Shown here piece by piece: positions 13,478 through 61,952 of a stretch of 64,000 nucleotides of DNA. Below the pieces are notes generated by a model. That model saw only the letters and a program-made list of their open reading frames with translations. It was not told the origin of the DNA and did no database searches. The stretch is from an uncultured Clostridia bacterium (GTDB lineage Bacteria; Bacillota; Clostridia; TANB77; CAG-508): contig CALXBX010000004.1 in assembly GCA_944386655.1 (NCBI GenBank), forward strand, positions 2,595 to 66,594, in the 5' to 3' direction. Both the position numbers and the translations under genes were made by a program. Each line of letters begins with the position of its first letter. Within the stretch, counting starts at the first letter, position 1.

Positions 13478-13510
13478 TTTTTAATTATTTATTTTATTAT
13501 TTTTGTCTTA

Positions 13511-43633: not shown

Positions 43634-43639
43634 CTTTGT

Positions 43640-43679
43640 TGCAATTTAAGGAACGTCCCTAAGTTGCACCTAAGTTGCA
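43640..43679. repeat. 29-nt quasi-palindromic element (copy a) plus an 11-nt half-repeat
   Basis: TGCAATTTAAGGAACGTCCCTAAGTTGCA followed by CCTAAGTTGCA. It contains the TAG stop (43670-43672) of the giant ORF. Confidence 0.9.
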
Positions 43680-46600
43680 TTTTTGTGCCATTTTAAGAAT
43701 ATTCCTAATGCTCCTACTACTAGTAGACCTATCGCTACTAAAAGGATTATGTTCTTTGTTGTCTCTCCTGTTTTAATAGTCATTACTACTTCTGCCTCTG
43801 ATGTATCTCCTTCTTTACTTGCATCCTCATAATTTGCTGGATTACTTGTTTTTACTATCTCTGCTATATTTTTCTTTGTTCCAAAATGATTTTCTCCTGG
43901 TATCCAACTTAATACGACTGTTAGTTCTTTAGTTTCTCCTGGTTTTAATGCTACTTCTGCAACTAAGTTTCCTTCTGCATTTCGTTTCCACTCACTTGCT
44001 GTTCCTTCTTCTACTTGGAAATTACTTGGTAGGTTTTCTGCTACTATCGCTGTTCCTTCTATCTCTCCTATATTGCTTACCTTTATTCCATACGTTATTT
44101 TTAATCTTGTTGTATTTATTTTGCTTCCTACTATCTCTATTTTGTCTATTTTTTCATCTATTCCTGCTTCTTGTTTTCCGTCTTTTTCTATTTGTTTTAT
44201 GGCTTTATCTATGCTCATATTGAATTCTTGTTTTCGATAGTAATAGATGATTTCTATATCTTCCTGTGTATAGGTTCCCTCTTCATTCTCTGGAATTTGG
44301 TTTTCTACTAGGTTATAGTACGGAATTTCTTTTGCTTCTGTCTGATAGTTTTCTCCTACATACCCTTTCATTTGTTCTCTATAGGTTTTGTACTCTCCTG
44401 TCTCTTCTTCCTTGTACAAAATTTCTTCTTTTGTATCTATATCCACATATTTTGCAGTTATTGTTCCACTTGGGATCTTCTCATAATAGTAAATAACATA
44501 AGTATCTTCTTTCTTCATTTTTCCCTCTTTATTACTTGGTTCTGGCTCTGCCGCTCTATAATTAGTGATTGTTTTTCTATTTGTTGTGTAGTTATCTCCT
44601 ACAAAACCTTCTAGAATTTCTTCTGGATACAATTCTTTGTTGTTACTATCATCCTCTTGGGTATCATCTTTTTCCAGATATTTTACAATGACTTTGGCTG
44701 GTATCCTTTTGTAAATATACGTTACTTCTATGGATTCTTCTGTTAATTTTCCTTGTGTTGTTCTTTCTACTTTTACGTATTCATAGCCATAAATTTCTTT
44801 TTGCTCTGTCTCATAGTTATCTCCTACTTTTCCTCCTATGATTTCATCTTCTAATAGCTTATTTCCTTCTTCATCTTCATAATGTACAATCACTCCTCCT
44901 GCTGTTGTTCTTTCATAATAGTAGATGACCTCTATGCTACCTTCTATCATATTTCCTGTTGCATTTTCACTTTTTTTCACATAAGTGTAACCCGGTATTT
45001 CTTTTTGTTCTGTAGTATAAGCATCTCCCACAAGGCCTTCTATTTCGTATCTATAAGTTTTCTCTACTGGTGCTTGTCCTTCTTGTTCTTCTAAGTAGGT
45101 GATTTCTTTTCCTGTTTCTTTGTCTATGTACTTTACTATAACTTTTCCTGGTATTTCTGTTTTGGTACTATAACTATCTTCTACGCTGTTGGTTTGCTCT
45201 GTCTCATATAAATCTACTGTTCCTGTTACTTGGTTTGCCATATTTCTTTGCGTAGCATCTAAATCGCTATATACTAAATTAATTTCTTTTTCTATATTTA
45301 CTTTATAGGCTCCATTGGTATATGTATTTACATGCTCTATGGTTTCTGTCCAGGTTATGGTTTGTGTTTCCTCATCATAGTTTCCTTCTGCTAAGTTAAT
45401 TTGTTCTAATAATTCACCTGCTTCATTTGTTGCTAACTTGTATGGCAAAGTATCTACTACTTTTACTACCACTTCTCCTATGTAGTCTGTTATAGTTGCG
45501 TTATATGTTATATGATAGCGTACTTCTTCTTGTGAGCTTGTTATCTTATCTAGTCCTGTTTTTTCTATGCTACTTTGCATTTCTGTATTCATTAGTTTGT
45601 ATTTATTCGTTACTGTAAATTTTTCATTTGGTGTTATGCCATCTGTTATATCATTTAGTTTTGTATTTGTGATTACTGGTACATCATAGTATTCTAAATC
45701 TCCTTTATTCGTTTCTGTTTCTACGACACTATATTCTATTTCTTTTCCTTCTTGTGTGTATTTTGGCAAATCTGCATAGGTATATGTCCAATGATTTTCT
45801 TCATTTAAAATAACCTTTTCTAATTCTTGTCCATTGTAATTTGTGTTTCCATTTGCCGTTAATTGTACTGTTACACTCTCTGGTCTATTTCCTTTTGTAT
45901 CTTCATTGTCATCCCATACTTTTTCTACTTGTTTTGCTACTTTGTATTCTTGCTCTACTTCTACACTATCTGCTGCAATATTGTTTAATCTTTCTCCTCC
46001 CGGATTAGTACTATGTCCTTCTGGATAATATACTTGGATACTTCCTGTTGCTTCGTTAAGTAGTGGCTCTATTACATTTTGATTTTGGTATACTACCTTA
46101 ATTTCTTTTTCTATTGTCTCATCATAAATTCCCTTTTCAAAGGTATTTATTTCTATTTCGTCTTTCCATGTAATTGTTTTTTCTGCACTATTGTAGGTTC
46201 CTCCTGCTAAATTTATTCTAGAGTCTACTTGTTTTAGTTCTGCTGGTAATTTATCTATTATTGTAATACTTGCTTTTCCTTTGTAATTATTTATTACTAC
46301 TCTATATCTTATTTTATAGGTTACTACCTCATTTTCTTCTGTTATTTTTTCTGTTGTGGCTGTTTTCTCTAATCCTGAACCTATTTGTGCCTCTTTTAAT
46401 TGATAATAATAGATAACTTCTATTGACTCTTTTGTCATGTTACCTTCTGATTTCTCTGGCATTTTATTTACACATTCATAGTTTTCATTTATTTTTTCAG
46501 ATGGATTTGTATCATAGCTTTGTCCTACTATTCCTTCTATTGTTTCGTCTGCTATCACTCCTCCTGCTTTGGATGGGACTTTTATTTTTGTTTTTCCTCC

Positions 46601-49600
46601 TGCTTCTTCATCATAGATGTAATGGTGTACTACTACCTTTGCCGGAATCTCTACTTTTACCTCATGTGTATCTGCTTTAGTTTCTTCTTTTACCTCTATT
46701 TCCTCTTTTACTGGTTCATTTGGATTTTCTGGGTTTTCTTTTTCTATTTCTTGTGTTAATACTATTTCCGCTTCTGCATTATTACTAATTGTTCCACTCA
46801 ATGTATTTTCATTTGGATAGTTATATTTTAATAATAGGGTTTTATTAATATCTATTTGCTGTATTCTTTCTGCGTTTTGATAAGTATTTATTTTTCCTAA
46901 TTCTATCTCCCATGTAATTGTTTTTTCTGTAGCATTATAACTTCCACCCTCTAATTCAGAGTTTGCTTCATCTATCTCGTATGGCAAATAGTCTACTATT
47001 TTTACTTTTCCTTTTCCTACAAAATCTTGGATGCTTGCTGTGTAGTTTATTGTATAGCTTACTTTTTCTTCTGTACTTGTTATTTTGTCTGCTCCCGTTT
47101 TTTCTATATTGCTACTTAGTTCTATCTTTGGCACTTCATAATTTGTTTCTGTTGTATTAGTTTCTTTTCCATCTACTGTTGCCACATTCTTTATTATTTT
47201 TTCTACATTATCATAATCGACTGTTACTTCAAAGCTTACTTCCTTTTCTTCTCCTCCTGCTATTTCTGCTACGTTCCATGTAATTACGTTTCCCGCATTT
47301 AAACTGATCTCTCCATTATTATTGATTTGATAAATCGTGGTTCCTTCTGGTACAGTATCTTTGATTGCTACCCTTTCTATTTTTTCTGCACCTACATTGT
47401 TTATTGTAATCGTGTATTTTATTCTATCTCCTGCCGTTACACTTTCTTCTGCTATCTCTTCATTTCCTTCCCCTCTTATGATTTCTGCTTTTTTATTGTA
47501 AATAAATACTGGTATTTCTGTTGTATTTGTCTCTTCTTCTCCACTTTCTGGATTATCTGGATTTTTATCTATTATAGCTATATTGCTTATGCTTCTTCTT
47601 GCTACCTCTCCTATTTCATCCACGGTTACTTCAAAACTTATGCTTCCTTCTCCCGGTGTTACTTCGTTTGTTCTTGCTGGCACATTGATTCTAATTCCAG
47701 CATTTAAGTTACTTGCTGTTTTGGATGTATCTGCTACATTGTTTATTTTTATACTTCCATTTACAAAACTCGTTCCTTCTGGAATACTATCTTTTACCAC
47801 TACATCTTGTCCTAATTCTCCATTATTTTGTAGTTTTATGGTGTATGTTATCTTTTCTCCCTCTACCACATAACTTAGTCCGTTTTCCGTTGTAGCTATT
47901 TTTTCACTATAGATTACTGCTCCTTTATAGCTATTCGTTATCTTTACTTTTTGCACCTCTTGTGTTTCTTGCGTATATTCTATTTTTCCTTCATAATAGT
48001 TTAAATTTCCTTCTTTTACTTCCTCTACTGTATATCGTATTTCTTCTCCTTGCTTATTGTATTTTGGTAAGTCGGTAAATGTCCATTCCCATGTATTTTC
48101 ATCATTATTTACTTTATTACTACTATTCAATACTTTTTCTGCTACTATTTCTTCTCCATTTTTTACTTGTATTTTTACTTCTTGAGGTATTCCATATATA
48201 TTGTTCGTGTGATTCCATACTTTGGTTACTTCTACCTCTTTTATAAATTCTGTTTGCGTTATTGCTATCGATGGTTCTGTTGTATCTTCTTGTTTTGGTG
48301 TTTCTAGTTCCACAGTTGTTTTTGCTTTTGCTTCAAAACTCGTTTTACTATAGTCCATATTTCTGTACACTACGGTTATTGTTTTTTCTTTATTTATTTC
48401 TTTCGTGCCTTCTGCATAAGTATCTATATTTTGTATGGTTTCTGTCCATGTTATGGTATGGCTTATGTTATTATATATTCCTCCATTTAACTCTGATTTT
48501 GCCTCGTCTATTTCGTATGGTAATGTTGCCACTATGGTTATCCTTGCATCTCCTATATATGTATTTACCTCTACATGACTGTTTATGGTATATTTTACTT
48601 CTCCTTCCTCTTTAGTTAATTTTTCTGTTCCTGTTATTTGTATTTCATTTTTTATTCCTGCTTCTTTTAATTGATAATAATAGATGACCTCTATTTCTTC
48701 TAGCGTCATATTTCCACTTGTATTATTTGTTTTCCCTACACATTCATAATTTTTTGGTATATTTTGTGCTTCTGTTGTGTTATATACATCATCTACTTGC
48801 CCGTTTATTACTACATCTGCACTTATTTTATTGGTTGTTCCTTCTATATAATGATGTACAACTACTCTTGCTTCTTTTCTTACATACCATACTTTTATGA
48901 CATTTTCTTCTTCATTTGCTCCTATAGTTAATGGCAAGTTTTCTACTTTTTCTAATTCATATTTCTCGGTTATTTTAGGTTCGTATTCTGTTATTTCTGC
49001 TTCATATGTCCCTGTATATACTTCTGTTTTGCTTTCATCTTTTATTCCATCGTAGTAATATTCTACTCTATACTCTATATCTGTTCTTCTGCTGTAGTAG
49101 AATATAATTTCATTAACTCCTACTCCTATTTCTATGCTTTGGGTAGTTGGTGTTATTGCATTATATCCTGCTATATTCACTGCGCTTTCTTCTATTACTT
49201 CTTTATAGGTTCTATTATTTACTGTCTTTTCTTCTTGTAATTTTTTATTCGTTCCCTGTTCTAAATATTTTACTGTATAGCTTAAATCTGTTCTCTTGGC
49301 ATAGTAAAAGTTGATTTCATTTCCACTTTCTTTTATCTCTATCGTTTGCGTAGTTGGTGCTACTGCATTGTATCCTTCTATCGCTATTGCCGTTTCTTCT
49401 ATCTCTTCTCCTATGGCTTTATCTCCTATTACTTTGCTGTTGGCTAATTTCGTATTTGTTCCCTCTTCATAATAGTTTACCGTATAAGTATAGGTTGCAA
49501 GTTTTACTTTTACTGTCTTTCCTATATTTCCTACTGCATCTACTGGAGCCACATACACATATTTTACTTTACTCATATTGCTTGTATCTATTTGGTTTTC

Positions 49601-51385
49601 TTCTGTATAGGTTCCACTATCCTCCGTTATTTGCGTTCCATTATCTTCTAAGCTTGTAACATATCTATATCCTACTACTCCTGAACCCTCTCCTAATGTA
49701 GCATGTCTGTCATTTGCCTCTAATAGGATTGTTTTATTTTGTAGTTCTGCCTTCGTTATAGTTGGAGCTGTTCCATCTAATTTACCTATATCTACTTTTA
49801 CGACTTGTTCGTTTCCTAACGCATCTTTTAAATAGATAGCTGCCGTTACTTTGTCGTATACATCTCCATAAAAATTGTATGTTCTTGTATAGTTATCTCC
49901 TTTCCCATTTGCCTCTTGATAATCATTTATGTTATTAAAGGCTATTTGCACTCCTCCTACTCCTAAGTCTTGTGCATGAAAGGTTATTTGCTTATTTTTA
50001 CTCCACTGACTTGTGTGGTCTTCTTCTGTATTCGTTAAGCTTGGTGCTTTGGCATCTATGTATTGAACAGTTACTGCCCCGTCTTCTAAAACTGTTGTAT
50101 TATCACATAAGTCTTTAACTTGTACATATACATTTCTTGGTTCTCTTATTTCTGCTACTATATCAAAAGTTCTAGTATATCTAGTTCCATTTTGTGAAGC
50201 AGCTCCCCAATCAGAAAGTACTGTACCGTCTGCATCTACTAATCTCATATATATGGTATTATTGGCTGGATTCCACGTATCTTCATAAACTGCTGTCACT
50301 GTTGCTTTTTGGCTATAGTTATCTATGGTTCCATTTCCTTCTGATATTACCGACACTTTTGTTGGAACATAATTGTCTGATTTTACATACACTCTACCTA
50401 AGTGTAAAGTATATGAATTTACCCCATTATAGGCATAACCATTACAATGAATATCTACTTCATATCTTCCTGGCGCTGTTATGTTTTCATCATATGTCAC
50501 TGTAGCTGAAAATTTATATGTATTAGAAGAAATCTGTTCATATTCTACTTCAGAATATGTAGCTCCATTAATTGGATCACAAGAGCCTGCTTCTATTTGT
50601 GAAAAATTTATAGTTACTCCATCTTGTAAAGTAGTTACAAAAGTATATTTAACACTATTTTCTGCTACAACTTGTGTTTCTATGGTGTATGTTGCCATCA
50701 CTTTTCCACAATTCAAGCATTCAGACGCTACATTCTCTTCTATACTATAATCCGAAGCAGCTGATGCGTGAACACTTCCATCTTTATAGGCTCCACAAAC
50801 TACACATGTTCCACTAATACCCGTTCCACAACCTAATTCATTTCCGTTAACATCATAACACTTACTTCTTGTAATTTCCTGACCACAAACCGTACAAAAT
50901 ATACCATGATAACTCCTATCTCCAAACACTCTCCATTCAGACAGAGTATGTTCCACTTTAGGTAATGTTATACTATATCCACAACCTGCAGTACAGCTTT
51001 CATGTTGATAACCTAAATTTTGTGCACATCCCGCTGTTCCAGTTATTTCCTTATTATGTGCTTCTCTATTTTGTATATCTCCACAAATCCAACATTCTTC
51101 CCAATGGTAATTGTCATCGTATTTTTTCTCATAGATATGTGTGTGTGCAGTATCATCTCCTGTTACTAATCCTGTTAAATCTATACTTGTTATCCCTACT
51201 TCTCTTGTTGTAGTATTGGAGTTTTCTTCTAGTGTATATTTCATCTGTTCTTGTGCTTCTACAATTATGTTTTGCACAGATTTACTTTGGGTAATCACAA
51301 TGAAAATAAGCACTGCTAGCATTAGTAGCATTGCTATTATGGCTTTTCTTTTTAATCCATTCCTTTTCCCTTGCTCTGCCTTCAT
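43670..51385 (-). CDS. Giant (~2570 aa) cell-surface adhesin-like protein: Cys/His-rich N-terminal modules, at least 9 MucBP-like repeats, CnaB-type and DUF11-type domains, C-terminal sorting-signal-like tail
   Basis: Signal anchor MKAEQGKRNGLKRKAIIAMLLMLAVLIFIV. MucBP-like units (e.g. KVIVKYIDKETGKEI...IEVIYYYER). CnaB-like units (VTKVWNHTNN...YTVEEV; VEKVWDDNEDTKGNRPESVTVQL...YSVVE). DUF11-like units (YTIKLQNNGELGQDVVVKDSIPEGTSFV). The tail is IKTGETT followed by a hydrophobic stretch and KWHK. Start at ATG 51385, with the GGAGGAGG RBS inside the track's TTG-extended start. Confidence 0.85.
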   Translation of the reverse strand: MKAEQGKRNGLKRKAIIAMLLMLAVLIFIVITQSKSVQNIIVEAQEQMKYTLEENSNTTTREVGITSIDLTGLVTGDDTAHTHIYEKKYDDNYHWEECWICGDIQNREAHNKEITGTAGCAQNLGYQHESCTAGCGYSITLPKVEHTLSEWRVFGDRSYHGIFCTVCGQEITRSKCYDVNGNELGCGTGISGTCVVCGAYKDGSVHASAASDYSIEENVASECLNCGKVMATYTIETQVVAENSVKYTFVTTLQDGVTINFSQIEAGSCDPINGATYSEVEYEQISSNTYKFSATVTYDENITAPGRYEVDIHCNGYAYNGVNSYTLHLGRVYVKSDNYVPTKVSVISEGNGTIDNYSQKATVTAVYEDTWNPANNTIYMRLVDADGTVLSDWGAASQNGTRYTRTFDIVAEIREPRNVYVQVKDLCDNTTVLEDGAVTVQYIDAKAPSLTNTEEDHTSQWSKNKQITFHAQDLGVGGVQIAFNNINDYQEANGKGDNYTRTYNFYGDVYDKVTAAIYLKDALGNEQVVKVDIGKLDGTAPTITKAELQNKTILLEANDRHATLGEGSGVVGYRYVTSLEDNGTQITEDSGTYTEENQIDTSNMSKVKYVYVAPVDAVGNIGKTVKVKLATYTYTVNYYEEGTNTKLANSKVIGDKAIGEEIEETAIAIEGYNAVAPTTQTIEIKESGNEINFYYAKRTDLSYTVKYLEQGTNKKLQEEKTVNNRTYKEVIEESAVNIAGYNAITPTTQSIEIGVGVNEIIFYYSRRTDIEYRVEYYYDGIKDESKTEVYTGTYEAEITEYEPKITEKYELEKVENLPLTIGANEEENVIKVWYVRKEARVVVHHYIEGTTNKISADVVINGQVDDVYNTTEAQNIPKNYECVGKTNNTSGNMTLEEIEVIYYYQLKEAGIKNEIQITGTEKLTKEEGEVKYTINSHVEVNTYIGDARITIVATLPYEIDEAKSELNGGIYNNISHTITWTETIQNIDTYAEGTKEINKEKTITVVYRNMDYSKTSFEAKAKTTVELETPKQEDTTEPSIAITQTEFIKEVEVTKVWNHTNNIYGIPQEVKIQVKNGEEIVAEKVLNSSNKVNNDENTWEWTFTDLPKYNKQGEEIRYTVEEVKEGNLNYYEGKIEYTQETQEVQKVKITNSYKGAVIYSEKIATTENGLSYVVEGEKITYTIKLQNNGELGQDVVVKDSIPEGTSFVNGSIKINNVADTSKTASNLNAGIRINVPARTNEVTPGEGSISFEVTVDEIGEVARRSISNIAIIDKNPDNPESGEEETNTTEIPVFIYNKKAEIIRGEGNEEIAEESVTAGDRIKYTITINNVGAEKIERVAIKDTVPEGTTIYQINNNGEISLNAGNVITWNVAEIAGGEEKEVSFEVTVDYDNVEKIIKNVATVDGKETNTTETNYEVPKIELSSNIEKTGADKITSTEEKVSYTINYTASIQDFVGKGKVKIVDYLPYEIDEANSELEGGSYNATEKTITWEIELGKINTYQNAERIQQIDINKTLLLKYNYPNENTLSGTISNNAEAEIVLTQEIEKENPENPNEPVKEEIEVKEETKADTHEVKVEIPAKVVVHHYIYDEEAGGKTKIKVPSKAGGVIADETIEGIVGQSYDTNPSEKINENYECVNKMPEKSEGNMTKESIEVIYYYQLKEAQIGSGLEKTATTEKITEENEVVTYKIRYRVVINNYKGKASITIIDKLPAELKQVDSRINLAGGTYNSAEKTITWKDEIEINTFEKGIYDETIEKEIKVVYQNQNVIEPLLNEATGSIQVYYPEGHSTNPGGERLNNIAADSVEVEQEYKVAKQVEKVWDDNEDTKGNRPESVTVQLTANGNTNYNGQELEKVILNEENHWTYTYADLPKYTQEGKEIEYSVVETETNKGDLEYYDVPVITNTKLNDITDGITPNEKFTVTNKYKLMNTEMQSSIEKTGLDKITSSQEEVRYHITYNATITDYIGEVVVKVVDTLPYKLATNEAGELLEQINLAEGNYDEETQTITWTETIEHVNTYTNGAYKVNIEKEINLVYSDLDATQRNMANQVTGTVDLYETEQTNSVEDSYSTKTEIPGKVIVKYIDKETGKEITYLEEQEGQAPVEKTYRYEIEGLVGDAYTTEQKEIPGYTYVKKSENATGNMIEGSIEVIYYYERTTAGGVIVHYEDEEGNKLLEDEIIGGKVGDNYETEQKEIYGYEYVKVERTTQGKLTEESIEVTYIYKRIPAKVIVKYLEKDDTQEDDSNNKELYPEEILEGFVGDNYTTNRKTITNYRAAEPEPSNKEGKMKKEDTYVIYYYEKIPSGTITAKYVDIDTKEEILYKEEETGEYKTYREQMKGYVGENYQTEAKEIPYYNLVENQIPENEEGTYTQEDIEIIYYYRKQEFNMSIDKAIKQIEKDGKQEAGIDEKIDKIEIVGSKINTTRLKITYGIKVSNIGEIEGTAIVAENLPSNFQVEEGTASEWKRNAEGNLVAEVALKPGETKELTVVLSWIPGENHFGTKKNIAEIVKTSNPANYEDASKEGDTSEAEVVMTIKTGETTKNIILLVAIGLLVVGALGIFLKWHKNAT

Positions 51386-51433
51386 GTTTTCCTCCTCCAA
51401 AGACTATCTTGCCATTAAATAATTATATATATT

Positions 51434-51462
51434 ATTATATCTTGTTATAGAGCGGGCGTAAA
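51434..51462 (-). promoter_or_regulatory. Candidate promoter of the giant surface-protein gene
   Basis: Minus strand: TTTACG (-35), 17-nt spacer, TATAAT (-10), about 45 nt upstream of the start codon. Confidence 0.35.
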
Positions 51463-51722: not shown

Positions 51723-51760
51723 TGAACTTTAAGGAACGTCCCTAAAGTTCACAAAGTTCA
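51723..51760. repeat. 29-nt quasi-palindromic element (copy b, arm variant) plus a 9-nt half-repeat
   Basis: TGAACTTTAAGGAACGTCCCTAAAGTTCA followed by CAAAGTTCA. The half-repeat supplies the TGA stop of the histidine kinase (51758-51760). Confidence 0.9.
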
Positions 51761-53767: not shown

Positions 53768-53781
53768 TTTTTCTCCTTTCT

Positions 53782-53850
53782 CTCTGCAATTTAGGGACGT
53801 TCTTTAAATTGCAATAAGTGCAATTTAAAGAACGTCCCTAAATTGCAGAG
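53782..53850. repeat. 69-nt perfect palindrome made of two inverted copies of the element (copies c1/c2)
   Basis: CTCTGCAATTTAGGGACGTTCTTTAAATTGCA-ATAAG-TGCAATTTAAAGAACGTCCCTAAATTGCAGAG. The 32-nt arms are exact reverse complements. It starts 10 nt after the RR stop and ends 3 nt before the HK RBS. Confidence 0.95.
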
Positions 53851-53860
53851 CATTATTTCT

Positions 53861-54568: not shown

Positions 54569-54597
54569 TTCTTCTTCCCCTTTCTTAGATATTTTCT

Positions 54598-54625
54598 AGT
54601 ATAACATAGTTTTCTTAAGAACCAA
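54598..54625 (-). promoter_or_regulatory. Candidate promoter of the RR-HK operon
   Basis: Minus strand: TTGGTT (-35), 16-nt spacer, extended -10 TGtTATACT, about 30 nt upstream of the RR start. Confidence 0.4.
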
Positions 54626-54648
54626 GTATAAATTTTATTAACATTTTA

Positions 54649-54677
54649 TGAACAATAGGGACGTTCCTTAAAGTCCA
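54649..54677. repeat. 29-nt element (copy d), inverted partner of copy e
   Basis: TGAACAATAGGGACGTTCCTTAAAGTCCA. Its reverse complement differs from copy e at 1 of 29 positions. Confidence 0.9.
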
Positions 54678-54745
54678 TAAAATAAAAATTCTTATAATTA
54701 AAATAAACGCTCCAAATGGCACACTTTTCTCAAAGGGAAAAGCCC

Positions 54746-54774
54746 TGAACTTTAAGGAACGTCCCTATTGTTCA
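54746..54774. repeat. 29-nt element (copy e)
   Basis: TGAACTTTAAGGAACGTCCCTATTGTTCA. It encodes the last six codons (NNRDVP) and the TAA stop of the AI-2E transporter ORF. Confidence 0.9.
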
Positions 54775-55900
54775 AAGCTTTTATTTTTCTGGTGCGGTAA
54801 TCTATATATTCATCTAAAGATACTTTTATAATAGCACTTATTGGAACAGATAAGAAAATTCCTATCATGCCAAAGTAAGCACCTCCCACTGTTACTGCAA
54901 ATATGACTAACAACGGGTTTATTTTTAAGGAGTTCCCTACTATTTTTGGATTAATAATATTGGCATCTATTTGTTGTAGAATAATAACTACCACTAGCAT
55001 CCAAATGGTTTGTTCTATTCCACCTGTGAAGAAGGTGATAATTCCTGCTATGATAACTGCTATAATGGCTCCAATGTAGGGTATCATATTGAATAGTCCT
55101 ATCATAAACCCTAGCAGTGGTGCATATTTTATGCCCATAATACTCATAGCAATGGAAGTAAGTATTCCTACCACAATGGCATCTATAAATTGCCCTGCTA
55201 AAAATTTGAAAAATATTTGATTAGAACGATTAAAATATTTATTCATATTACGATAGATACGTGGTCTGAAAGTGACTCCAGCTAATTTTTTAAAGAATTG
55301 TAAGATACTACTTCTACCAATTAACAAATATACGGATACGATAATTGCTACAAAGGTATTTACAATACCATTGGCAAAGCTAACTGCTCCTTGCAAATAT
55401 TGTGTTAGTGCTTCTACATTTAAAATTTCTTTAATATCTATACTTTGAATAGCATTCATAATTCCTGTCATTACATTTGTTTTAAAGAAATTGTCTTCTG
55501 GTAAATTATCGATGGCATGAATAGCCATATCGTAATAACTATGGAAGTTATTTGCCAAGTCTAAAATACTTTCTAGAATTGGTGGAATTATCCATGTAAA
55601 TAACAATATAATTAATAGCAAAGTAATAAGATATACTGTGATGACACTAAATGTTCTTGCTTTTTTGCGAATCCATTTATTTTTTGTTTTTTTATAAAAT
55701 TCTTCGACTTTTCTGCATGGCAAGTATAAAATATAGGCAATTAAAAGTCCTATAAAGAATGGTGCTAGCACTTGAAATAATGTACCAATCCAGTTTGTAA
55801 TTTCTCCAAAATTATCAAATATTTTATAGACAAAAATGACGGCTACGGCAAAAGTAAACCAATACAGCCATTTTGTCCACGTTCTAGGCTTTTTCTCCAA
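54752..55900 (-). CDS. AI-2E family transporter (PerM/YhhT-like permease)
   Basis: 382 aa with about 8 TM helices and the typical C-terminal GGxxFGxxGxxLxxP pattern (GGAYFGMIGIFLSVPI). Confidence 0.8.
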   Translation of the reverse strand: MEKKPRTWTKWLYWFTFAVAVIFVYKIFDNFGEITNWIGTLFQVLAPFFIGLLIAYILYLPCRKVEEFYKKTKNKWIRKKARTFSVITVYLITLLLIILLFTWIIPPILESILDLANNFHSYYDMAIHAIDNLPEDNFFKTNVMTGIMNAIQSIDIKEILNVEALTQYLQGAVSFANGIVNTFVAIIVSVYLLIGRSSILQFFKKLAGVTFRPRIYRNMNKYFNRSNQIFFKFLAGQFIDAIVVGILTSIAMSIMGIKYAPLLGFMIGLFNMIPYIGAIIAVIIAGIITFFTGGIEQTIWMLVVVIILQQIDANIINPKIVGNSLKINPLLVIFAVTVGGAYFGMIGIFLSVPISAIIKVSLDEYIDYRTRKIKALNNRDVP

Positions 55901-55928
55901 TTTTCTTCTCTCCTTATCCTTTTCTATT

Positions 55929-56687
55929 TTAAGGGTTTTCTATTTCTATACCAACTGGGCAATGGTCACTCCCCATTACCTCTGCATAGATTTTACTATC
56001 TTTTATTTTGCTTTCTAATCGTTTGGATACAATAAAATAATCGATTCTCCATCCTGCATTTTTTTCTCTTGCATGAAACATATAGGACCACCAAGAATAA
56101 GCTTCTGTTTTTTCTGGGTATAAATAGCGAAAAGTATCTGTAAAACCGGAAGATAGCAAGGCTGTCATTTTATTTCTTTCTTCATCGGTAAATCCTGCAT
56201 TATGATGATTGGTACTTGGATTTTTTAAGTCTATCTCCTCATGTGCCACATTGAAATCTCCACAATAAATGACTGGCTTTTTCTTATCTAAATTTATTAG
56301 ATATTCTCGCATAGCATCTTCCCAAACCATACGATAGTCTAGTCTCTCTAATTCTCTTTTGGAATTTGGAGTATAGCAATTTACAAAATAGAAGTTTTCG
56401 TACTCTAAAGTAATTACTCTTCCTTCTGTATCATGCTCTTCTATTCCTATTCCATAAGTTACTTGCAATGGTTTCTTTTTGGTGAATACGGCTGTTCCAG
56501 AATAGCCTTTTTTTATGGCACTATTCCAATATTGTTCATATCCTTCTAATTCCAGGTTTACTTGACCTTCTTGCAATTTGGTTTCTTGCAGTGCAAAAAT
56601 ATCGGCATCTATTTCTTGGAAAAAGTTCATAAATCCTTTATTTAGGGCTGCCCTTAATCCATTTACATTCCATGATATACATTTCAT
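55929..56687 (-). CDS. xth: Exodeoxyribonuclease III (Xth/ExoA)
   Basis: MKCISWNVNGLRA, QETK, GDFN and SDHCPV motifs. Start preferred at ATG 56687, which has a GGAGGA RBS. Confidence 0.9.
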   Translation of the reverse strand: MKCISWNVNGLRAALNKGFMNFFQEIDADIFALQETKLQEGQVNLELEGYEQYWNSAIKKGYSGTAVFTKKKPLQVTYGIGIEEHDTEGRVITLEYENFYFVNCYTPNSKRELERLDYRMVWEDAMREYLINLDKKKPVIYCGDFNVAHEEIDLKNPSTNHHNAGFTDEERNKMTALLSSGFTDTFRYLYPEKTEAYSWWSYMFHAREKNAGWRIDYFIVSKRLESKIKDSKIYAEVMGSDHCPVGIEIENP

Positions 56688-56805
56688 GCTTTCTCTATCC
56701 TCCATTATATTTTTTACTATTTTCTCGTGCTATTTAGAGGCAACATACCTCTTTTTATGTTCTTTATTTTACTATAGAAAACGGGATAAATCAATATTTA
56801 TGCAT

Positions 56806-56840
56806 ACAAAAAATAGCCTTAAGTAATTCTTAAAGCTATT
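56806..56840 (-). terminator. Rho-independent terminator after the G5/3D-domain gene
   Basis: Minus strand: AATAGCTTTAAG-aatta-CTTAAGGCTATT followed by TTTTTGTATG. Confidence 0.7.
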
Positions 56841-56850
56841 TCTCCATATT

Positions 56851-56899
56851 TGCAATTTAAGGAACGTCCCTAAATTGCAAGGAACGTCCCTAAATTGCA
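56851..56899. repeat. 29-nt element (copy f) plus a tandem 20-nt partial copy
   Basis: TGCAATTTAAGGAACGTCCCTAAATTGCA followed directly by AGGAACGTCCCTAAATTGCA. It abuts the TAA stop at 56900-56902. Confidence 0.9.
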
Positions 56900-57889
56900 T
56901 TAAAATTCATATATATAACATTCCAAATTTTTTCTACCAAATTGTAAACATTCGTTATGTGTAGACATGAATATGTCTATTTTGTTGTTAGAAATAGCTC
57001 CTCCTCTATCTTGTACTACAAACCATCCTCCATTTGGTTTATTTTTAAAATATGGAATATAAATAATCGTTCCTATTTTATACCCTTTTCCTGCGGCAAT
57101 GGTATACCAAGCGGATGCTTTTGCTCCTGATGAAGTAATTCCATTTGTCTTTCCACAACATTTTACACAAGCATCATAAGCAGATGTATTCATTGTTTTT
57201 ACTTTTGGTGTAATGCCTTCTACTTTTTTTGCTAAACTAGAAGATGCTGTAAGTGCTGGGTTTGTACTTGCTGTTCTTTCTGTACCTCTTGATGTTACTT
57301 GCACCGTTCTTACTTGTACAATTTTATCTACTGGTTCTTTGATAATAGTAGAAGAGATTTCTGTTCTTTCTATTTCTACATCATTTTGATATTTTACTTT
57401 GTACTTCACTTCTTTTAATCCATTTTCACCTTTTTGAATTACCTGATTTTGCTTTGTTCCTTCTCCTGTTGCTTCTTTTGTAATGGTCTCAAAAGGTATT
57501 TCTACTTGTTCTGTAATAATTTTTTCTACAATCGTATCATAAGTTGCTAAAATTTCTTCTGTTGTAACAACAGCTTCTGTTTTTGCAATCTCTTGCTCTT
57601 CCTCTGTTTTTTTCACAATTTTAATTGTTTTATTATCTGGTAATTCTTCTTGTTTATCTGGTGTTACTGTTTCATCTTCTAATAATACGATGTGATTTTC
57701 TTCCAAGATTTCTCCAACCGTTGTTTTAGATGTTAAAACTGTCATTTCATAATCATTGGAAAGTATTATTTTTACGCTTGTTAAACTTGCATTGGATGCC
57801 ATAACACCTATACTTGTCATAAATATAAGTATTAAGCAGATTCCTAATATTTTTATTAGTGATATCGATGCTTTATCATCTTTCTTCAT
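56900..57889 (-). CDS. DUF348/G5/3D-domain cell-wall protein (YabE/RpfB-like)
   Basis: TM anchor. DUF348-like segment (VKIILSNDYEMTVLTSKTTVGEILEE), G5-like segment (ETITKEATGEGTKQNQVIQKGENGLKEVKYKV) and a 3D domain (GGWFVVQDRGGAI...IDIFM). Start at ATG 57889 with AAGGAGGG RBS. The track start at 57964 lies upstream of the promoter. Confidence 0.8.
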   Translation of the reverse strand: MKKDDKASISLIKILGICLILIFMTSIGVMASNASLTSVKIILSNDYEMTVLTSKTTVGEILEENHIVLLEDETVTPDKQEELPDNKTIKIVKKTEEEQEIAKTEAVVTTEEILATYDTIVEKIITEQVEIPFETITKEATGEGTKQNQVIQKGENGLKEVKYKVKYQNDVEIERTEISSTIIKEPVDKIVQVRTVQVTSRGTERTASTNPALTASSSLAKKVEGITPKVKTMNTSAYDACVKCCGKTNGITSSGAKASAWYTIAAGKGYKIGTIIYIPYFKNKPNGGWFVVQDRGGAISNNKIDIFMSTHNECLQFGRKNLECYIYEF

Positions 57890-57925
57890 AAAAATATTTT
57901 CCCTCCTTATTTTTGCAACAATGTC

Positions 57926-57954
57926 ATTATACCATTTTCTTTTTCTCGTGTCAA
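57926..57954 (-). promoter_or_regulatory. Consensus sigma-A promoter of the G5/3D gene
   Basis: Minus strand: TTGACA, 17-nt spacer, TGgTATAAT (perfect -35, extended -10). Confidence 0.7.
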
Positions 57955-58193
57955 ATTTTGGCACATTCTACTTTTTCTTACAGCCTTCTGCGTTTTGCAT
58001 TTTTGCATTATGTTTCCTTCTTTGTTTTCGCTTTTATTATCCACTATATTATATGATGCTTGTACGAAAAAAATGACTTTTTTATTTCTATTTATCACAT
58101 ATTTTTTACAAAGATTTCATATACTAGCTATTGTACGAACAAAAAAGATATGATATACTAATATCACTTTAAAATAAGGAGGATATATTAGTT

Positions 58194-58751
58194 ATGGGAT
58201 GGATTATATTAGCCATTGTTGTTATTTTAGTAATTGCTGTTATTTTGATTTATAACAGTTTGGTATCTAAAAGGCAAAATGTAAAAAATGCATGGAGTCA
58301 AATTGATGTACAACTACAAAGAAGATTCGATTTAATTCCTAATTTAGTAGAAACTGTAAAAGGCTACATGACACATGAGAAAGACGTATTAGAAAAAGTA
58401 ACTTCTCTTCGTTCTTCTTGGGCAGAGGCAAATACCGTTGCAGAAAAATCTGCTTTAGATAACGAACTATCTAGTGCTTTAAAAACGATTTTAGCGGTTT
58501 CTGAAAATTATCCAGATCTAAAGGCAAATCAAAGTTTTGCTGATTTACAAGAAGAATTAAGAACAACAGAAAATAAAATTTCTTTTTCTAGACAGTTTTA
58601 TAATGATACCGTTACTATTTATAATACAAAGTTGGAAACTTTCCCTTCTAACGTAATTGCTTCTATGTTTGGCTTTAAAGAAGAAAGTCTATTTGAAGCA
58701 GAAAGTGATGAAGCAAGAAAAAATGTAAAAGTAGATTTTAGTCAAAAATAA
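58194..58751 (+). CDS. lemA: LemA family protein
   Basis: N-terminal TM, then [39 protein letters not shown]..., a canonical LemA sequence. AAGGAGG RBS. Confidence 0.9.
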
Positions 58752-58855
58752 GGAAGGAAATAAAAAACAAGGACGGCGGAGGATTACTTCTCCGTCCAAT
58801 TTTCTTCTATATTTAGCAATGGGCATTTACATACATACTAAAAGGAGGATTTTTT

Positions 58856-59752
58856 ATGTTTCAAGATATTAAACGAAATAAAATAAAAACTGGAATTATT
58901 GTTAGTATTTTTATTATTTTAGTAACACTACTTATCTATTATGTTTGTATGGCTTTTGAACTAGGACCTATTTCTATTGTAATTGCTCTTATTTTTTCTT
59001 TCTTAAGTGCTTGGTCTTCTTATTACTATAGCGACAAAATTATTCTTTCACTTAATAAAGCAAGACCTGCAACAAAAGAAGAAAATCAAAAATTAGTGAA
59101 TATTTTAGATGCCTTAGTAGTTTCTTCTGGTCTTAGTGTAACTCCAAAATTATATGTTATGGAAGACGCACAGCCTAATGCTTTTGCTACAGGAAGGAAT
59201 CCGGAGCATAGTATTATTTGCGTTACTACTGGTTTATTAGAAAAATTGGATTACTACGAGCTAGAAGGTGTTATTGGACATGAACTTGCTCACATTAAAA
59301 ATTATGACATTTTACTTTCTGCTGTTGTCACAGTTATGGTAGGATTAGTGGTTATGTTAGCAGATATTATGACGAGAGCTTTCTTTTGGGGTGGTCTTCG
59401 CGACCATGATGACGATGACAGCAAGGCTAGCGCTATTCTTATGTTAGTTGGACTTATTTTTCTAATTCTATCTCCTATTTTTGCTCAACTAATGAAACTA
59501 GCCATTTCTCGTAGACGTGAATTTTTAGCAGATGCTACTTCTGTTCAATTTACAAGAAACCCTCAAGGTTTAATTTCTGCTTTAAGGAAGTTAGAAGACG
59601 ATCAGAATCCATTAAAAACTGCAAATAATTCTACTGCTCATATGTATATTGTAAGTCCTTTTAAGAAAAAGGATAAAAGAAGTAGTTCTAGTCTTTGGTC
59701 AACACATCCTTCTACAGAAGATAGAATTGCTGCTTTGGAAAATTTAAAATAG
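58856..59752 (+). CDS. htpX: M48-family zinc metalloprotease HtpX-like
   Basis: HELAHIKN zinc motif, 4 TM segments and REFLADA. Paired with lemA, as is common. Confidence 0.85.
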   Translation: MFQDIKRNKIKTGIIVSIFIILVTLLIYYVCMAFELGPISIVIALIFSFLSAWSSYYYSDKIILSLNKARPATKEENQKLVNILDALVVSSGLSVTPKLYVMEDAQPNAFATGRNPEHSIICVTTGLLEKLDYYELEGVIGHELAHIKNYDILLSAVVTVMVGLVVMLADIMTRAFFWGGLRDHDDDDSKASAILMLVGLIFLILSPIFAQLMKLAISRRREFLADATSVQFTRNPQGLISALRKLEDDQNPLKTANNSTAHMYIVSPFKKKDKRSSSSLWSTHPSTEDRIAALENLK

Positions 59753-59763
59753 CTTTACTCAAA

Positions 59764-59797
59764 AATAGCCTTAGATTTTTATCTAAAGCTATTTTTT
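59764..59797. terminator. Bidirectional rho-independent terminator between htpX and the convergent small ORF
   Basis: AAAAATAGCCTTAGAT-tttt-ATCTAAAGCTATTTTTTATTT. The stem has one mismatch, with an A-run on the left and a T-run on the right. Confidence 0.7.
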
Positions 59798-59863
59798 ATT
59801 TGATGACATATTTTTTCGGTTGTTTCTCTTAATTTTATTATAATGACTACTGCTAAAATTTAA

Positions 59864-60067
59864 TTAATTTAATTCCTCTCTCAAAAATTTTTGTAAATCT
59901 TCTTTATTTAAATTTTTTAAAGCCTCTCTTCTTTCTTCTGTATAATCTCCCTTTCCATCACTATACATTTGTATAAACTTTATCATACCTTCAACACCTA
60001 ACTTGTCTTTTAAAGCTTTAAGCCCATCTCTTCTTATTTTTTCTAGCTCTCTGATGGTTACTGCCAT
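59864..60067 (-). CDS. Small hypothetical protein (67 aa) translationally abutting the PIN gene; possible TA partner
   Basis: The ATG at 60067 immediately follows the PIN TAA (TAAATG). The product is helical and charged. No recognisable DNA-binding motif. Confidence 0.4.
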   Translation of the reverse strand: MAVTIRELEKIRRDGLKALKDKLGVEGMIKFIQMYSDGKGDYTEERREALKNLNKEDLQKFLREELN

Positions 60068-60509
60068 TTACATCACCTCCATAACAAATTCTATTGGATT
60101 TATAACTTTTATTTTTAAATTTGCTTTTTTCGAAGCATTAATCAATTGCTTATCTACCGTTATAAAATAATCCACTTCTTTACTTTCTGCATAAGCTATA
60201 TGATAAGCATCCATATAATGAATATGATATTTTTCTAATTCTTCTACTCTCTTATCTAATTCGTATGTATATGGAATATTTTCTAATTCTAATCCGTCAT
60301 ATAAATCCTCTACCTGTCTTCTTTTATCTCCATCTGAAATTCTGCTTATTTCATAATCAATAGCTCTACTTTTATATATTATAATTTTATTATTTACATA
60401 CATATTTATAATAGAATCTATTGCTCCGCGATTCTAAATTTATTTTTTCTTGTTTTAAATCATCAAATGGTCTATTATAACAGCAATTATCCAAATATAA
60501 CTTTAACAT
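60068..60509 (-). pseudogene. PIN-domain (VapC-like) ribonuclease gene interrupted by a frameshift
   Basis: ATG 60509 opens MLKLYLDNCCYNRPFDDLKQEKINLES..., the conserved N-terminal strand with the first PIN Asp. That frame stops at 60390. The rest of the domain (..GAIDSIINMYVNNKIIIYKS...MDAYHIAYAE...DYFITVDKQLI) continues in another frame as ORF 60068..60403. The junction is near 60422-60431. Confidence 0.65.
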
Positions 60510-60579
60510 TATACTAACCTCTCTTTCTATTATAGCATATTTTCTTAAATTTATCTATTTTAAAAAATATTTTTTGGGG

Positions 60580-61371
60580 TTATTTGTGGAAAATTTCAAA
60601 TATTCTTTCCGCATTTTGATAGGTTATTTTTGCCACCTCTTCTAAGGAAATATTTTTTACATTTGCTATTTTCTGTGCAATATATTTCACATTTCTACAA
60701 TCATTTCTTTTTCCTCTTAATGGTTCTGGCGACAAATAAGGGCTATCTGTTTCTATGAGCAAACGTTCCATTGGGACCATTTGTATGACTTTCTCTGCAT
60801 TTTTTGCATTTTTAAAAGTAACTGGACCTGCAAAAGAAATAAAATAACCTAATTTTAATGCCTCTTTGATAAGTTCTCTATTCATAGGGCAACAATGGAA
60901 AATCCCCTTTTTCTGTACTGGGTGTTCTTTTAACATTTTGATAGTATCTTCCACCGCTTCTCTGGTATGAATTACAATTGGTAACTGATAATGATTGGCA
61001 AGTTCTATTTGCTTAGCAAACATCTCTTTTTGTATTTGTTTGTTTTCTTTGTTCCAATAATAATCTAATCCAATTTCTCCTACAGCTACTATTTTATTTG
61101 TTTTGGCTGTTTGTAGCATTTCTTCTATTTCTTGTAATAGTGTAGCCTCTTGCTCTTGTGTTTCTGGTACATCGTTTGGTGAAATACCGCAAATGGTATA
61201 AATATATGGATATTTTTTTGCTATTTCTATCGCTTTTAAGGAAGATGCTACATTGTAACCAGCACAAATATATTTGGTAATTCCCTCCTCAAAGCTTGTC
61301 TGTATGATATTATCTCTATCTTCATCAAACTTTTCATCATTATAATGAGCATGTGAATCAAAGAACTCCAT
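60580..61371 (-). CDS. tatD: TatD family metal-dependent hydrolase/DNase
   Basis: FFDSHAHY, EIGLDY, VIHTRE and ETDSPYL motifs. Confidence 0.9.
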   Translation of the reverse strand: MEFFDSHAHYNDEKFDEDRDNIIQTSFEEGITKYICAGYNVASSLKAIEIAKKYPYIYTICGISPNDVPETQEQEATLLQEIEEMLQTAKTNKIVAVGEIGLDYYWNKENKQIQKEMFAKQIELANHYQLPIVIHTREAVEDTIKMLKEHPVQKKGIFHCCPMNRELIKEALKLGYFISFAGPVTFKNAKNAEKVIQMVPMERLLIETDSPYLSPEPLRGKRNDCRNVKYIAQKIANVKNISLEEVAKITYQNAERIFEIFHK

Positions 61372-61419
61372 GTTTCTCTTCTCCTATTTCTATTCTTTAT
61401 TTTTTTATCTTCTCTACTG

Positions 61420-61803
61420 TTATTCTTTCCATAAAACAACTACTTGTGCCATAGCATATTGTTTACAATGGGAAATACTAATGTCTATATTTGCTATATT
61501 AGCTGTTTTTATTTTTTCCTCATCCAATCCCACCTGTGGTCGTCCTGATTCATCATTTTTTAATTCTATGCTTTTCCATTCTATGGCATACTTGTCTGGT
61601 ATTTCGCAAGAAAGTGCCTTAAATACGGCTTCTTTTGCCGCAAACCTTGCTGCATAATGCTGATATTTATTTTGATTTTTCTTTTCACAATAGTCTATTT
61701 CTTGTTTTGTATATATTCGACTTATAAAGGCGTCTTTTTGCTCTAGTATTGCTTCTTTTATTCTATCTATTTCTATGATATCACATCCACAAGTTATTTT
61801 CAT
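61420..61803 (-). CDS. acpS: Holo-[acyl-carrier-protein] synthase
   Basis: MKITCGCDIIEIDRI and FAAKEAVFKAL motifs. Start at ATG 61803 with AAGGAAG RBS. The track extension runs into repeat copy g. Confidence 0.85.
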   Translation of the reverse strand: MKITCGCDIIEIDRIKEAILEQKDAFISRIYTKQEIDYCEKKNQNKYQHYAARFAAKEAVFKALSCEIPDKYAIEWKSIELKNDESGRPQVGLDEEKIKTANIANIDISISHCKQYAMAQVVVLWKE

Positions 61804-61813
61804 TTTTCTTCCT

Positions 61814-61842
61814 TGCAATTTAGGGACGTTCCTTAAATTGCA
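61814..61842. repeat. 29-nt element (copy g), exact inverted partner of copy h
   Basis: TGCAATTTAGGGACGTTCCTTAAATTGCA. It directly abuts the acpS RBS. Confidence 0.9.
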
Positions 61843-61912
61843 TTTTCCTTTCTATGAACTTTGTTAAATATCCACTTTTTACATTAAATATAGTCTATTC
61901 ATTTTTTATTAC

Positions 61913-61952
61913 TGCAATTTAAGGAACGTCCCTAAATTGCACCTAAATTGCA
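61913..61952. repeat. 29-nt element (copy h) plus an 11-nt half-repeat
   Basis: TGCAATTTAAGGAACGTCCCTAAATTGCA followed by CCTAAATTGCA, 4 nt after the TGA stop of ORF 61957..63192. Confidence 0.9.

Follow-up and report, generated by a model that had tools for sequence, protein, structure and literature searches.

A REP-type hairpin repeat in low-GC gut Clostridia and its probable partner, a Y1 (HUH) transposase

Background

The closest described systems to the one reported here pair a short palindromic repeat with a transposase of the Y1 (HUH) type: the repetitive extragenic palindromic (REP) sequences and BIMEs of Escherichia coli with their REP-associated tyrosine transposase (RAYT; TnpA-REP, structure 4ER8), and the REPIN-RAYT system of Pseudomonas (Nunvar 2010; Bertels and Rainey 2011, PMC3116915; Ton-Hoang 2012). 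A second group, the TIRtrons with their TIRYT enzymes (Di Nocera 2013, PMC3733652), has been equated with subclass 2.1 of the TnpA-Y1 proteins (Quentin 2018, PMC6006769). Here we describe a 29-nt hairpin-forming repeat, designated E, found in a stretch of 64,000 nt from an uncultured Clostridia bacterium (GCA_944386655.1, contig CALXBX010000004.1), referred to throughout as the window.

TIRYTs are RAYT-like, longer than classical RAYTs and endowed with a C-terminal helix-turn-helix (HTH), and their flanking inverted repeats share GGGGWSAS; some TIRtron repeats are self-complementary, moderately abundant and dimeric (PMC3733652). REP-like sequences were not found beside subclass 2.1 genes, and Clostridia are named only for the IS200-type subclass 1.1 (PMC6006769), while the survey of Di Nocera names neither Firmicutes nor Clostridia (PMC3733652). 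Bertels et al. state that RAYT group 1 occurs in Clostridia as well and tie abundant repeats to groups 2 and 3 only (PMC5581495).

From the evidence presented below, E is probably a REP-type element that serves as DNA substrate for its cognate single-strand transposase, a Y1 (HUH) enzyme of RAYT/TIRYT type. The kind of system, a parasite or passenger of genomes, is known (REP/RAYT, TIRtron-type); the family and its host group were previously undescribed. An earlier note on this DNA, made from the sequence alone, had not recognised the repeat as a described family, and we concur. Rfam 15 gave no gathering-score match anywhere in the window, a permissive search (E-value of at most 1) returned only spurious plant miRNA-precursor models on doublets of E, far below threshold, and literature text searches found no description of the family, which is not proof of absence. 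A full-text search for the core sequence yielded unrelated eukaryotic and primer matches only.

Results and discussion

A dispersed repeat of low-GC Clostridia

The orientation of E was fixed as the strand reading GGAACGTCCC, and the opposite strand is called the GGGACG strand. When up to 3 mismatches are allowed, the full 29-mer TGCAATTTAAGGAACGTCCCTAAATTGCA has 6 matches in the window, against an expectation of 0. The core RGAACGTCCC has 10 against 0.02 expected, at 8 loci that all lie between 43,650 and 61,932 (plus strand: 43650, 51733, 53829, 54756, 56861, 56881 and 61923; minus strand: 53794, 54658 and 61823). An 18-mer at 3 mismatches recovers the identical 10 copies and none before 43 kb. 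The core and 18-mer searches agree with the earlier count of ten copies at 8 loci, and the last with the statement that the first 43 kb hold none; the four partial duplications are likewise present and are of the 3' arm (Table 1). An assembly artefact is excluded, since the same copies stand in the same places in 10 independent assemblies from other samples.

One genome per prokaryotic species was scanned with TTTAARGAACGTCCCTA, and at least 108 stretches matched. Among the matches listed, nearly all are metagenome-assembled genomes (MAGs) of 25-33% GC, labelled uncultured Clostridia or Clostridium and representing many species, from the guts of humans, chickens, rabbits, mice and deer. The E family is a dispersed, clade-wide repeat, not confined to the region where it was first noticed. 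About a dozen high-GC matches (Desulfobacterales, Bathyarchaeia, Bacteroidetes and others), each single, were attributed to chance; by our estimate, ~140 17-mer matches are expected by chance in the ~1.2e12 bases scanned.

The copy counts, placements and pairing statistics given below come from 96 low-GC stretches among the matches listed, together with the window, and the scan pattern itself partly forces the constancy of the centre of E. This set contains 186 copies, nearly all of them intergenic or overlapping final codons only. Density is one copy per 6.4 kb in the window and about one per 8 kb in the listed low-GC stretches, with each stretch's recruiting copy excluded, which would amount to a few hundred copies per genome if it holds genome-wide. 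Assemblers break at E repeats, so copy numbers in MAGs are probably underestimated.

The transposase gene and its flanking hairpins

Related genomes encode a Y1 HUH transposase of ~255 aa. In the listed stretch L097, a 276-aa open reading frame (ORF) lies between two 105-nt inverted repeats, each consisting of E, 47 nt and a second E. Its product scores 40.5 bits against Pfam Y1_Tnp (cut-off 23), and its best NCBIfam model is REP_Tyr_transpos, the REP-associated tyrosine transposase (65 bits, E-value 5e-18); the NCBIfam IS200 model reaches 17 bits against a cut-off of 55. By tblastn, the Y1 gene is also present in two more listed stretches, L035 and L032, which brings to three the randomly ascertained E loci in which E flanks the gene. 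The enzyme family has more than 2,000 homologues, in which the HUH histidines H60 and H62 and the tyrosine Y120, within YIHNNP, are invariant. Also conserved is a C-terminal helical domain or HTH region, with sub-threshold matches to Sigma70_r4 in 15 of 23 members and to HTH_23 in 4 of 23. An AlphaFold model (predicted local distance difference test, pLDDT, 85.6) has 4ER8, the E. coli RAYT with a REP hairpin, as its top Foldseek match (E-value 4.9e-6, target template-modelling score 0.69), followed at ranks 2-30 by the IS608, ISDra2 and IS200 transposases, which share the HUH/Y1 fold. A sequence search against PDB chains did not reach 4ER8; the fold search did.

In L035 and L032, GGGACG lies upstream of the gene and a further copy directly downstream; the downstream copy reads CGTCCC in L032, whereas L035 has a doublet there, with CGTCCC in its outer copy. 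We surveyed the flanks of the enzyme gene in 36 metagenomic loci encoding homologues 37-64% identical. Inverted hairpins surround the gene in 33 of these loci, 29 of them with GGGACG upstream and CGTCCC downstream, as well as in at least 11 further distinct loci, nearly all with the same reading; L109-L114 and L206-L214 also have this arrangement. The arms and the remainder of the loop vary by lineage (TGCCA, GTTGTCAA, TGGAAA, GTGATCC, GTATAC and others), and in each lineage the hairpins on either side of the transposase gene are of the lineage's own type. GGGACG/CGTCCC, which lies in the apex, is the only motif common to nearly all these versions, and hence probably serves in recognition or cleavage. 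In one subgroup (L130-L141 and L166, ~43% identical), double inverted repeats carry CCGGAACC in place of CGTCCC, which suggests a change of recognition motif. The earlier note had likened E to REP/BIME sequences or to the ends of IS200/IS605 elements and had proposed a hairpin with a sequence-specific apex; Y1 genes bracketed by E support that view.

The copies around the gene have their 5' sides inward and their 3' sides outward. The short doublets described below have the same geometry, and look like a transposase unit minus its gene, that is, a REPIN-like or miniature derivative.

A connection to the window strain comes from the locus encoding the 257-aa enzyme P0015 (L209-L211), where one TGCAA-type and one TGAAC-type copy stand upstream and the downstream copy is the exact window consensus, which supplies the TAA stop of the gene. 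The locus was recovered from samples ERZ28616147 and ERZ24773359, both of which hold contigs 99.8-99.98% identical to the window, and in the BRZ_GV assembly the P0015 locus and the window strain have similar coverage (3.6x vs 4.1x). The window organism likely encodes P0015.

Across species with enzymes 54-66% identical, the gene neighbours are constant (ruvB, a glycosyltransferase gene, the transposase gene, queH), as would be expected of a gene inherited vertically at a single site more than of a hopping insertion sequence (IS). An NMO/FabK-like gene adjoins the transposase gene in L097, L109 and L111, on differing sides. A conserved GGGGGCAAA or GGGGGACAAA motif stands ~25-45 nt upstream of the transposase start in L032, L035, L109, L111, L114 and L209, lineages whose proteins are ~50-65% identical, and may be a regulatory element of the gene. 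In L097, an E copy (3368-3396) inside the 3' end of the transposase gene adds ~20 residues to the product (protein P0011, 18 member sequences). The transposase stop is supplied by the flanking E copy in L035, L032 and L209.

A hairpin on one strand

Lineages differ in the outer five base pairs of E, which nevertheless remain complementary (TGAAC/GTTCA, TGCAA/TTGCA, GGGAT/ATCCC, GTCAC/GTGAC, TGAAA/TTTCA and others). When hairpins were sought by their arms only, 81 of 97 TGAAC-type cases had the same centre and the remainder differed by 1-2 bases, which bears out the near-constant centre first seen in the window. Over 47 distinct copies, 88% of the cells are paired and 65 are doubly changed, against 18.6 in shuffles (0 of 500 reach 65); controls in which the partner was slid by 1-3 columns are far lower. 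Arm covariation is thus confirmed, as the earlier note had proposed from compensatory arms. The note's further step, from covariation to a hairpin and away from a protein half-site, does not follow from it alone, since covariation by itself would also fit a dimeric site.

The two strands differ. On the GGGACG strand, 122 of 185 copies form a perfect 13-bp stem; on the other strand, none of the 185 does. The frequent variants, all transitions, leave the GGGACG strand with a G·T pair where the other strand acquires an A·C mismatch: T21 to C, which has this effect, occurs in ~24 copies, and the mirror change favouring the E strand, A9 to G, in 2, both being equally excluded by the search pattern. 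Folded as RNA, the GGGACG strand reaches -14.8 kcal/mol, the other -10.9 kcal/mol. Moreover, several self-complementary arm types coexist in a genome (TGCAA and TGAAC in the window itself), and hybrid-arm copies exist. The hairpin forms on a single strand, which reads TGAACTTTAGGGACGTTCCTTAAAGTTCA; we prefer it to a dimer site because arm types coexist within genomes and the G·T-keeping variants favour one strand only.

These observations bear directly on the idea that a dimeric DNA-binding regulator uses E as its operator. In favour of this, E is palindromic, has two 9-bp half-sites and in some copies lies just upstream of genes. Most copies, however, lie at the 3' ends of unrelated genes, at a density (about one copy per 6-8 kb) that is high for an operator, and neither the several self-complementary arm types in a genome nor the strand-asymmetric tolerance of variants suits a dimer site. 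We find this explanation scarcely credible.

Polarity at gene borders

Placement is strictly polar: the 3' side of E (…CGTCCCTAAAGTTCA) borders genes, and beyond the 5' side lie ~30-150 nt of other intergenic sequence. The 3' side is turned toward the end of an opposite-strand gene in 108 cases, in 82 of which it lies within 11 nt or overlaps. In 48 of the 108 the gene terminates inside E, with overlaps of 3, 10 or 23 nt that correspond to TGA, TAG and TAA in the three frames; another 34 leave a gap of 0-11 nt. In another 65 cases the 3' side is turned toward the start of a same-strand gene, 32 of them at 11-28 nt with a ribosome-binding site between, and gene-upstream copies stop 1-8 nt short of the Shine-Dalgarno sequence (SD). 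The earlier description of E as "glued to stop codons" thus holds for gene ends and fails as a full rule, since the same side also faces gene starts. The rule is kept by the 85 singletons as well, which the reading of E as a REP-type element does not explain. Stop codons as the cause of polarity were considered and rejected: in the TGAAC type all three frames contain stops on either strand, and the TGCAA type lacks the TGA frame.

The 5' side is commonly an A-run, so that a T-run follows the GGGACG strand, in 27-40% of copies vs 16% in the background. Such a configuration raises the alternative that E is mainly a host RNA element, a terminator or 3'-exonuclease barrier at gene 3' ends and a stabiliser at 5' ends, kept by selection rather than spread by a transposase. 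In its favour, the mRNA strand at gene ends carries the perfect 13-bp hairpin, the T-runs exceed background, the gene-upstream copies end just before the SD and the copy at 51723 is better conserved than the adjacent gene. Nevertheless, most copies have no U-run, and copies a and f of the window have separate terminators of their own. A reading of E as a terminator applies to a minority of copies only, by T-run counts and by a consensus scan of the window, which flags a single copy, on the non-coding strand. Furthermore, gene-upstream copies present the weaker strand, one doublet stands within a two-component operon, where termination would harm, and the hypothesis leaves unexplained both the motif bracketing a Y1 gene in dozens of lineages and the fixed geometry of the doublets. 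As the main function of E it is improbable; as a secondary, co-opted role it could apply.

Doublets and arm remnants

About half of the copies stand in inverted doublets, singles being as common as doublets. Among copies within 250 nt of each other, the order (-,+) occurs 40 times, (+,-) never and tandem 12 times. The (-,+) doublets fold as 29-bp hairpins of -31 to -33 kcal/mol as DNA; no target-site duplication was found at the borders of those examined. Variants were shared by the doublet partners (mirrored) in 9 instances and private in 9, which is weakly informative. The pair found in the GGGAT lineage forms a long palindrome and contains a second, degenerate pair AAGGAGTGTCCC further in.

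With a length of 63-190 nt and perfect terminal inverted repeats, the doublets resemble Correia and RUP elements, and might be ordinary miniature inverted-repeat transposable elements with 29-bp termini, mobilised by a DDE transposase elsewhere in the genome. Against this stand the missing target-site duplication, internal sequences that are mostly unrelated within a genome, the frequency of singles, the fact that each terminal repeat is itself a hairpin, and the associated gene, which is Y1 and not DDE. We hold this origin to be extremely unlikely.

Of 184 copies, 16 have an extra 3'-arm remnant on their gene side vs 1 for the 5' arm, and five further cases, identified by eye in the flank listing, carry a remnant of the other arm type. 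Remnants and hybrid arms would fit joining inside or adjacent to the conserved centre; slippage or homologous exchange between copies could also produce them.

Variation among strains and species

The window was compared with the 10 independent assemblies mentioned above. Nine of these ten strains are 99.6-99.98% identical to it over the whole aligned length, as is L199 except in a ~91% stretch. Four structural differences were resolved between 51.7 and 62 kb, and all four lie at E copies; apart from those, ~380 nt near 60.2-60.6 kb are missing from L199, and the adhesin gene of L197 contains a small gap. E copies are sites of strain length variation and of a gene-sized presence/absence difference.

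The 20-nt partial copy behind copy f is present in the window, L198 and L204, and absent from L197, L199, L200 and the relative L070. In L196 a scaffold gap (N run, 4928-5027) falls exactly inside the tandem partial copies that match window 56851-56899. The tight doublet is a singlet in L199 and L202, an exact 34-nt difference. The same two strains have, between the kinase and the adhesin genes, an extra 865-nt segment that is bounded by two direct E copies and in which an ankyrin-repeat ORF of 203 aa runs on the opposite strand; the window there has one copy and a 9-nt arm remnant, and both carriers are >99.6% identical to it around the site. In the divergent stretch of L199, the 61.8-kb doublet is replaced by a single copy of the other arm type.

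At greater distance, L070 (86% identical) has one copy that is absent from the window and is without one copy that the window has, and L008 is without the doublet. Copies differ between species and between strains, and the earlier note had suggested comparing relatives for their presence or absence; the intergenic DNA of L070 and L008 is too diverged for insertion borders to be placed. Synteny with L070 breaks exactly at the first base of copy a. At L070 1830 and 1977, compared with window 43640, the 3' end of the adhesin gene is joined to a region matching window 58081.

Differences of this kind could also be expected if E were a conservative site-specific recombination site, integron- or inverton-like, bordering shuffled or inverted cassettes. 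As in hix, lox and dif, the quasi-palindrome has an asymmetric centre; copies stand at gene borders, hybrid arms exist, the ankyrin segment lies between direct copies, and the L070 break coincides with a copy. However, no tyrosine or serine recombinase gene was seen beside copies at any locus, and the gene that is consistently bracketed encodes a Y1 HUH enzyme. Inverted pairs enclose spacers of 5-130 nt, not genes, no inverted spacer variants occur among the 10 strains, and deletion between 29-nt direct repeats requires no dedicated enzyme. On balance this reading is very unlikely. The specific case of an inverton with a flanked promoter was rejected, given the lack of a recombinase nearby, spacers down to 5 nt and the absence of flipped spacers in 10 strains.

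Copies and neighbouring genes in the window

The features of the window are collected in Table 1. The gene labels assigned earlier were all confirmed: a MucBP/Cna_B adhesin, a HisKA kinase, a response regulator and an AI-2E transporter. The same is true of the stop codons supplied by E, with those of the adhesin and the kinase lying in arm remnants and that of the transporter in a full copy. A separate terminator had been proposed behind copies a and f and possibly b; it is present for a and f as a long AT-rich hairpin with a U-run, and none follows b.

The tight doublet sits between the response-regulator stop and the kinase SD. In the doublet at 54649/54746, arm pairing inside each copy is incomplete and the two copies mirror each other; the right copy provides the final codons and the TAA (54752-54754) of the AI-2E transporter. 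Inversion between palindromic copies was rejected as the origin of this pair, as the arms it predicts mismatch those observed; the pair is a long inverted repeat. At the last doublet, the minus copy ends 10 nt ahead of the ACPS ATG, with AGGAAG between, and the plus copy is placed after the stop of a 411-aa gene.

The product of the adhesin gene (43670-51400) is a surface protein of 2576 aa that contains MucBP, Cna_B and DUF11 domains. Where the window has this single gene, gene calling in strain L197 yields an ORF of 681 aa and then a second ORF running off the locus.

Table 1. E copies, arm repeats and associated features of the window and of two related strains
Feature	Position	Strand	Remarks
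AT-rich hairpin with U-run, intrinsic-terminator-like	43596..43637	-	downstream of copy a on the coding strand; separate from E
E copy a	43640..43668	+	TGCAA arms, one arm mismatch; coding (-) strand carries the GGGACG hairpin, 1 nt past the adhesin stop
11-nt 3'-arm repeat CCTAAGTTGCA	43669..43679	+	holds the adhesin TAG stop 43670-43672 (- strand)
E copy b	51723..51751	+	TGAAC arms; 29/29 identical at the orthologous gene end in L008
9-nt 3'-arm remnant CAAAGTTCA	51752..51760	+	holds the histidine-kinase TGA stop 51758-51760
Ankyrin segment	L202 4240-5104; L199 about 12810-13660		corresponds to window point 51751/51752
Tight doublet	53785..53847	-,+	- copy 53785-53813, 5-nt spacer, + copy 53819-53847; 29-bp hairpin
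Doublet	54649..54774	-,+	- copy 54649-54677, 68-nt spacer, + copy 54746-54774
Hairpin with U-run, terminator-like	56808..56844	-	downstream of copy f on the coding strand; separate from E
E copy f	56851..56879	+	consensus
20-nt tandem partial copy	56880..56899	+	abuts the TAA (56900-56902) of a G5/3D-domain gene
Doublet	61814..61941	-,+	- copy 61814-61842, 70-nt spacer, + copy 61913-61941
11-nt 3'-arm repeat CCTAAATTGCA	61942..61952	+	4 nt from the stop at 61957-61959

Comparison with described systems

E shares with REP/REPIN-RAYT systems a short imperfect palindrome in many extragenic copies, mostly just past genes, inverted doublets able to form long hairpins and, in related genomes, a Y1 HUH gene bracketed by inverted copies (a REPtron). 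The enzyme is also like a RAYT in that its best structural match is 4ER8 and its gene neighbours are conserved across species. In contrast to REP-RAYT, E is without the unpaired GTAG at the stem foot and has an invariant GGGACG in the apex, the enzyme has a C-terminal HTH and scores under the NCBIfam RAYT cut-off, the hosts are low-GC Clostridia and not Proteobacteria, and placement is strictly polar.

The closest described relatives are the TIRtrons and TIRYTs: the enzyme is likewise RAYT-like and longer than classical RAYTs, with a C-terminal HTH region, and may belong to subclass 2.1. The commonest flank of the gene, (A/G)GGGACGT with core GGGACGTT, fits GGGGWSAS at 6 of 8 positions, and GGGGACGT is a partial fit; GGGGACAC and GGGGACAG, in inner copies and in L155 and L212, fit fully. 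Unlike subclass 2.1 as reported (PMC6006769), the E enzyme is flanked by abundant REP-like hairpins.

With IS200/IS605 elements such as IS608 and ISDra2, the enzyme shares the HUH/Y1 fold; their transposases recognise a subterminal hairpin in single-stranded form, and its imperfections are specific to one strand, as in E. However, the ends of IS200 are two different same-strand hairpins, whereas those of the E unit are inverted copies of one hairpin, and IS200 TnpA is ~130-150 aa without an HTH, compared with ~255 aa with an HTH. No tnpB was found in the flanks of the E transposase loci examined, where the neighbours are conserved housekeeping genes. Finally, miniature inverted-repeat elements such as RUP and BOX (S. 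pneumoniae), Correia/NEMIS (Neisseria) and ERIC are, like E, small, gene-adjacent, co-transcribed, hairpin-forming and sometimes stop-supplying; their conserved internal sequence, target duplications (TA for Correia) and DDE-type partners are features not seen in E.

A proposed mechanism and the evidence against it

In the scheme that we propose, the enzyme would bind the E hairpin in transiently single-stranded DNA, read GGGACG in the apex and cut and rejoin there or nearby. Cutting and rejoining would multiply copies and doublets, and the signs of this, all indirect, are the polymorphism at copies and their presence or absence between species. Copies would persist only where they are harmless, just past stops and just upstream of ribosome-binding sites, which in a compact genome would produce the appearance of being glued to genes. 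Side effects on the host are likely: a stable 13-bp hairpin would be placed at mRNA 3' ends, terminator-like in about one third of copies, and E copies would probably act as recombination hot spots.

Several findings weigh against the pairing of E with this enzyme, or against mobility in this form. The window itself holds no Y1 transposase gene by tblastn, as the earlier note had said of RAYT- and TnpA-like genes, and its link to P0015 is by shared samples, similar coverage and identical element types, with no single contig joining them. The NCBIfam RAYT score of 65 falls below the curated cut-off of 80, and no unpaired GTAG/CGTC tag was found at the stem foot in the flanks of 184 oriented copies, which show an A-rich 5' side only. 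Doublet spacers of 5-131 nt, mostly unrelated within a genome, fit poorly with whole-unit copying. No clean pair of empty and filled sites with a target duplication was found, and the strain differences could all come from slippage or homologous recombination, with no transposase. The copy at 51723 is identical to its L008 counterpart at all 29 positions and the adjacent kinase is ~72% identical, which could mean host-level selection; our scheme does not account for an E copy that is better conserved than the gene next to it. Lastly, the copies clump: of the intergenic gaps of at least 50 nt, 0 of ~24 are occupied in the first 43 kb vs 8 of 13 after it (Fisher p=3e-5). Comparable clumps are seen elsewhere, with 7 copies in 8 kb in L035 and 10 in 7.3 kb in L097.

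A variant of the proposal, which we consider unlikely, is that E and its enzyme are more than a parasite and have been domesticated as a pair that structures the genome; the outcome in these reduced gut Clostridia would be a cassette system like an integron, operated by an HUH enzyme. In such a case, transcription units would be bracketed by oriented hairpins, with the strong strand at mRNA 3' ends and the weakened strand before ribosome-binding sites. E sites would serve as Y1 break-and-join points for gaining, losing and swapping gene-sized segments such as the ankyrin segment.

Conclusions

Abundant REP and REPIN repeats with a matching RAYT have so far been worked out almost entirely in Proteobacteria. 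If E is indeed the substrate of the Y1 enzyme whose gene it brackets, HTH-bearing enzymes would have REP-like hairpin partners as well, at a density comparable to that of E. coli REPs. For specialists, the features to note are the apex motif, the HTH enzyme subclass, the strict polarity and the copies that mark gene-sized polymorphisms. GGGACG in the apex is a sharply defined candidate recognition motif, testable in vitro, and the lineages, with their joint divergence of arms, loop and enzyme, provide a natural series. E would also explain many odd gene ends, assembly breaks and strain-level insertions and deletions in widespread uncultured gut bacteria.

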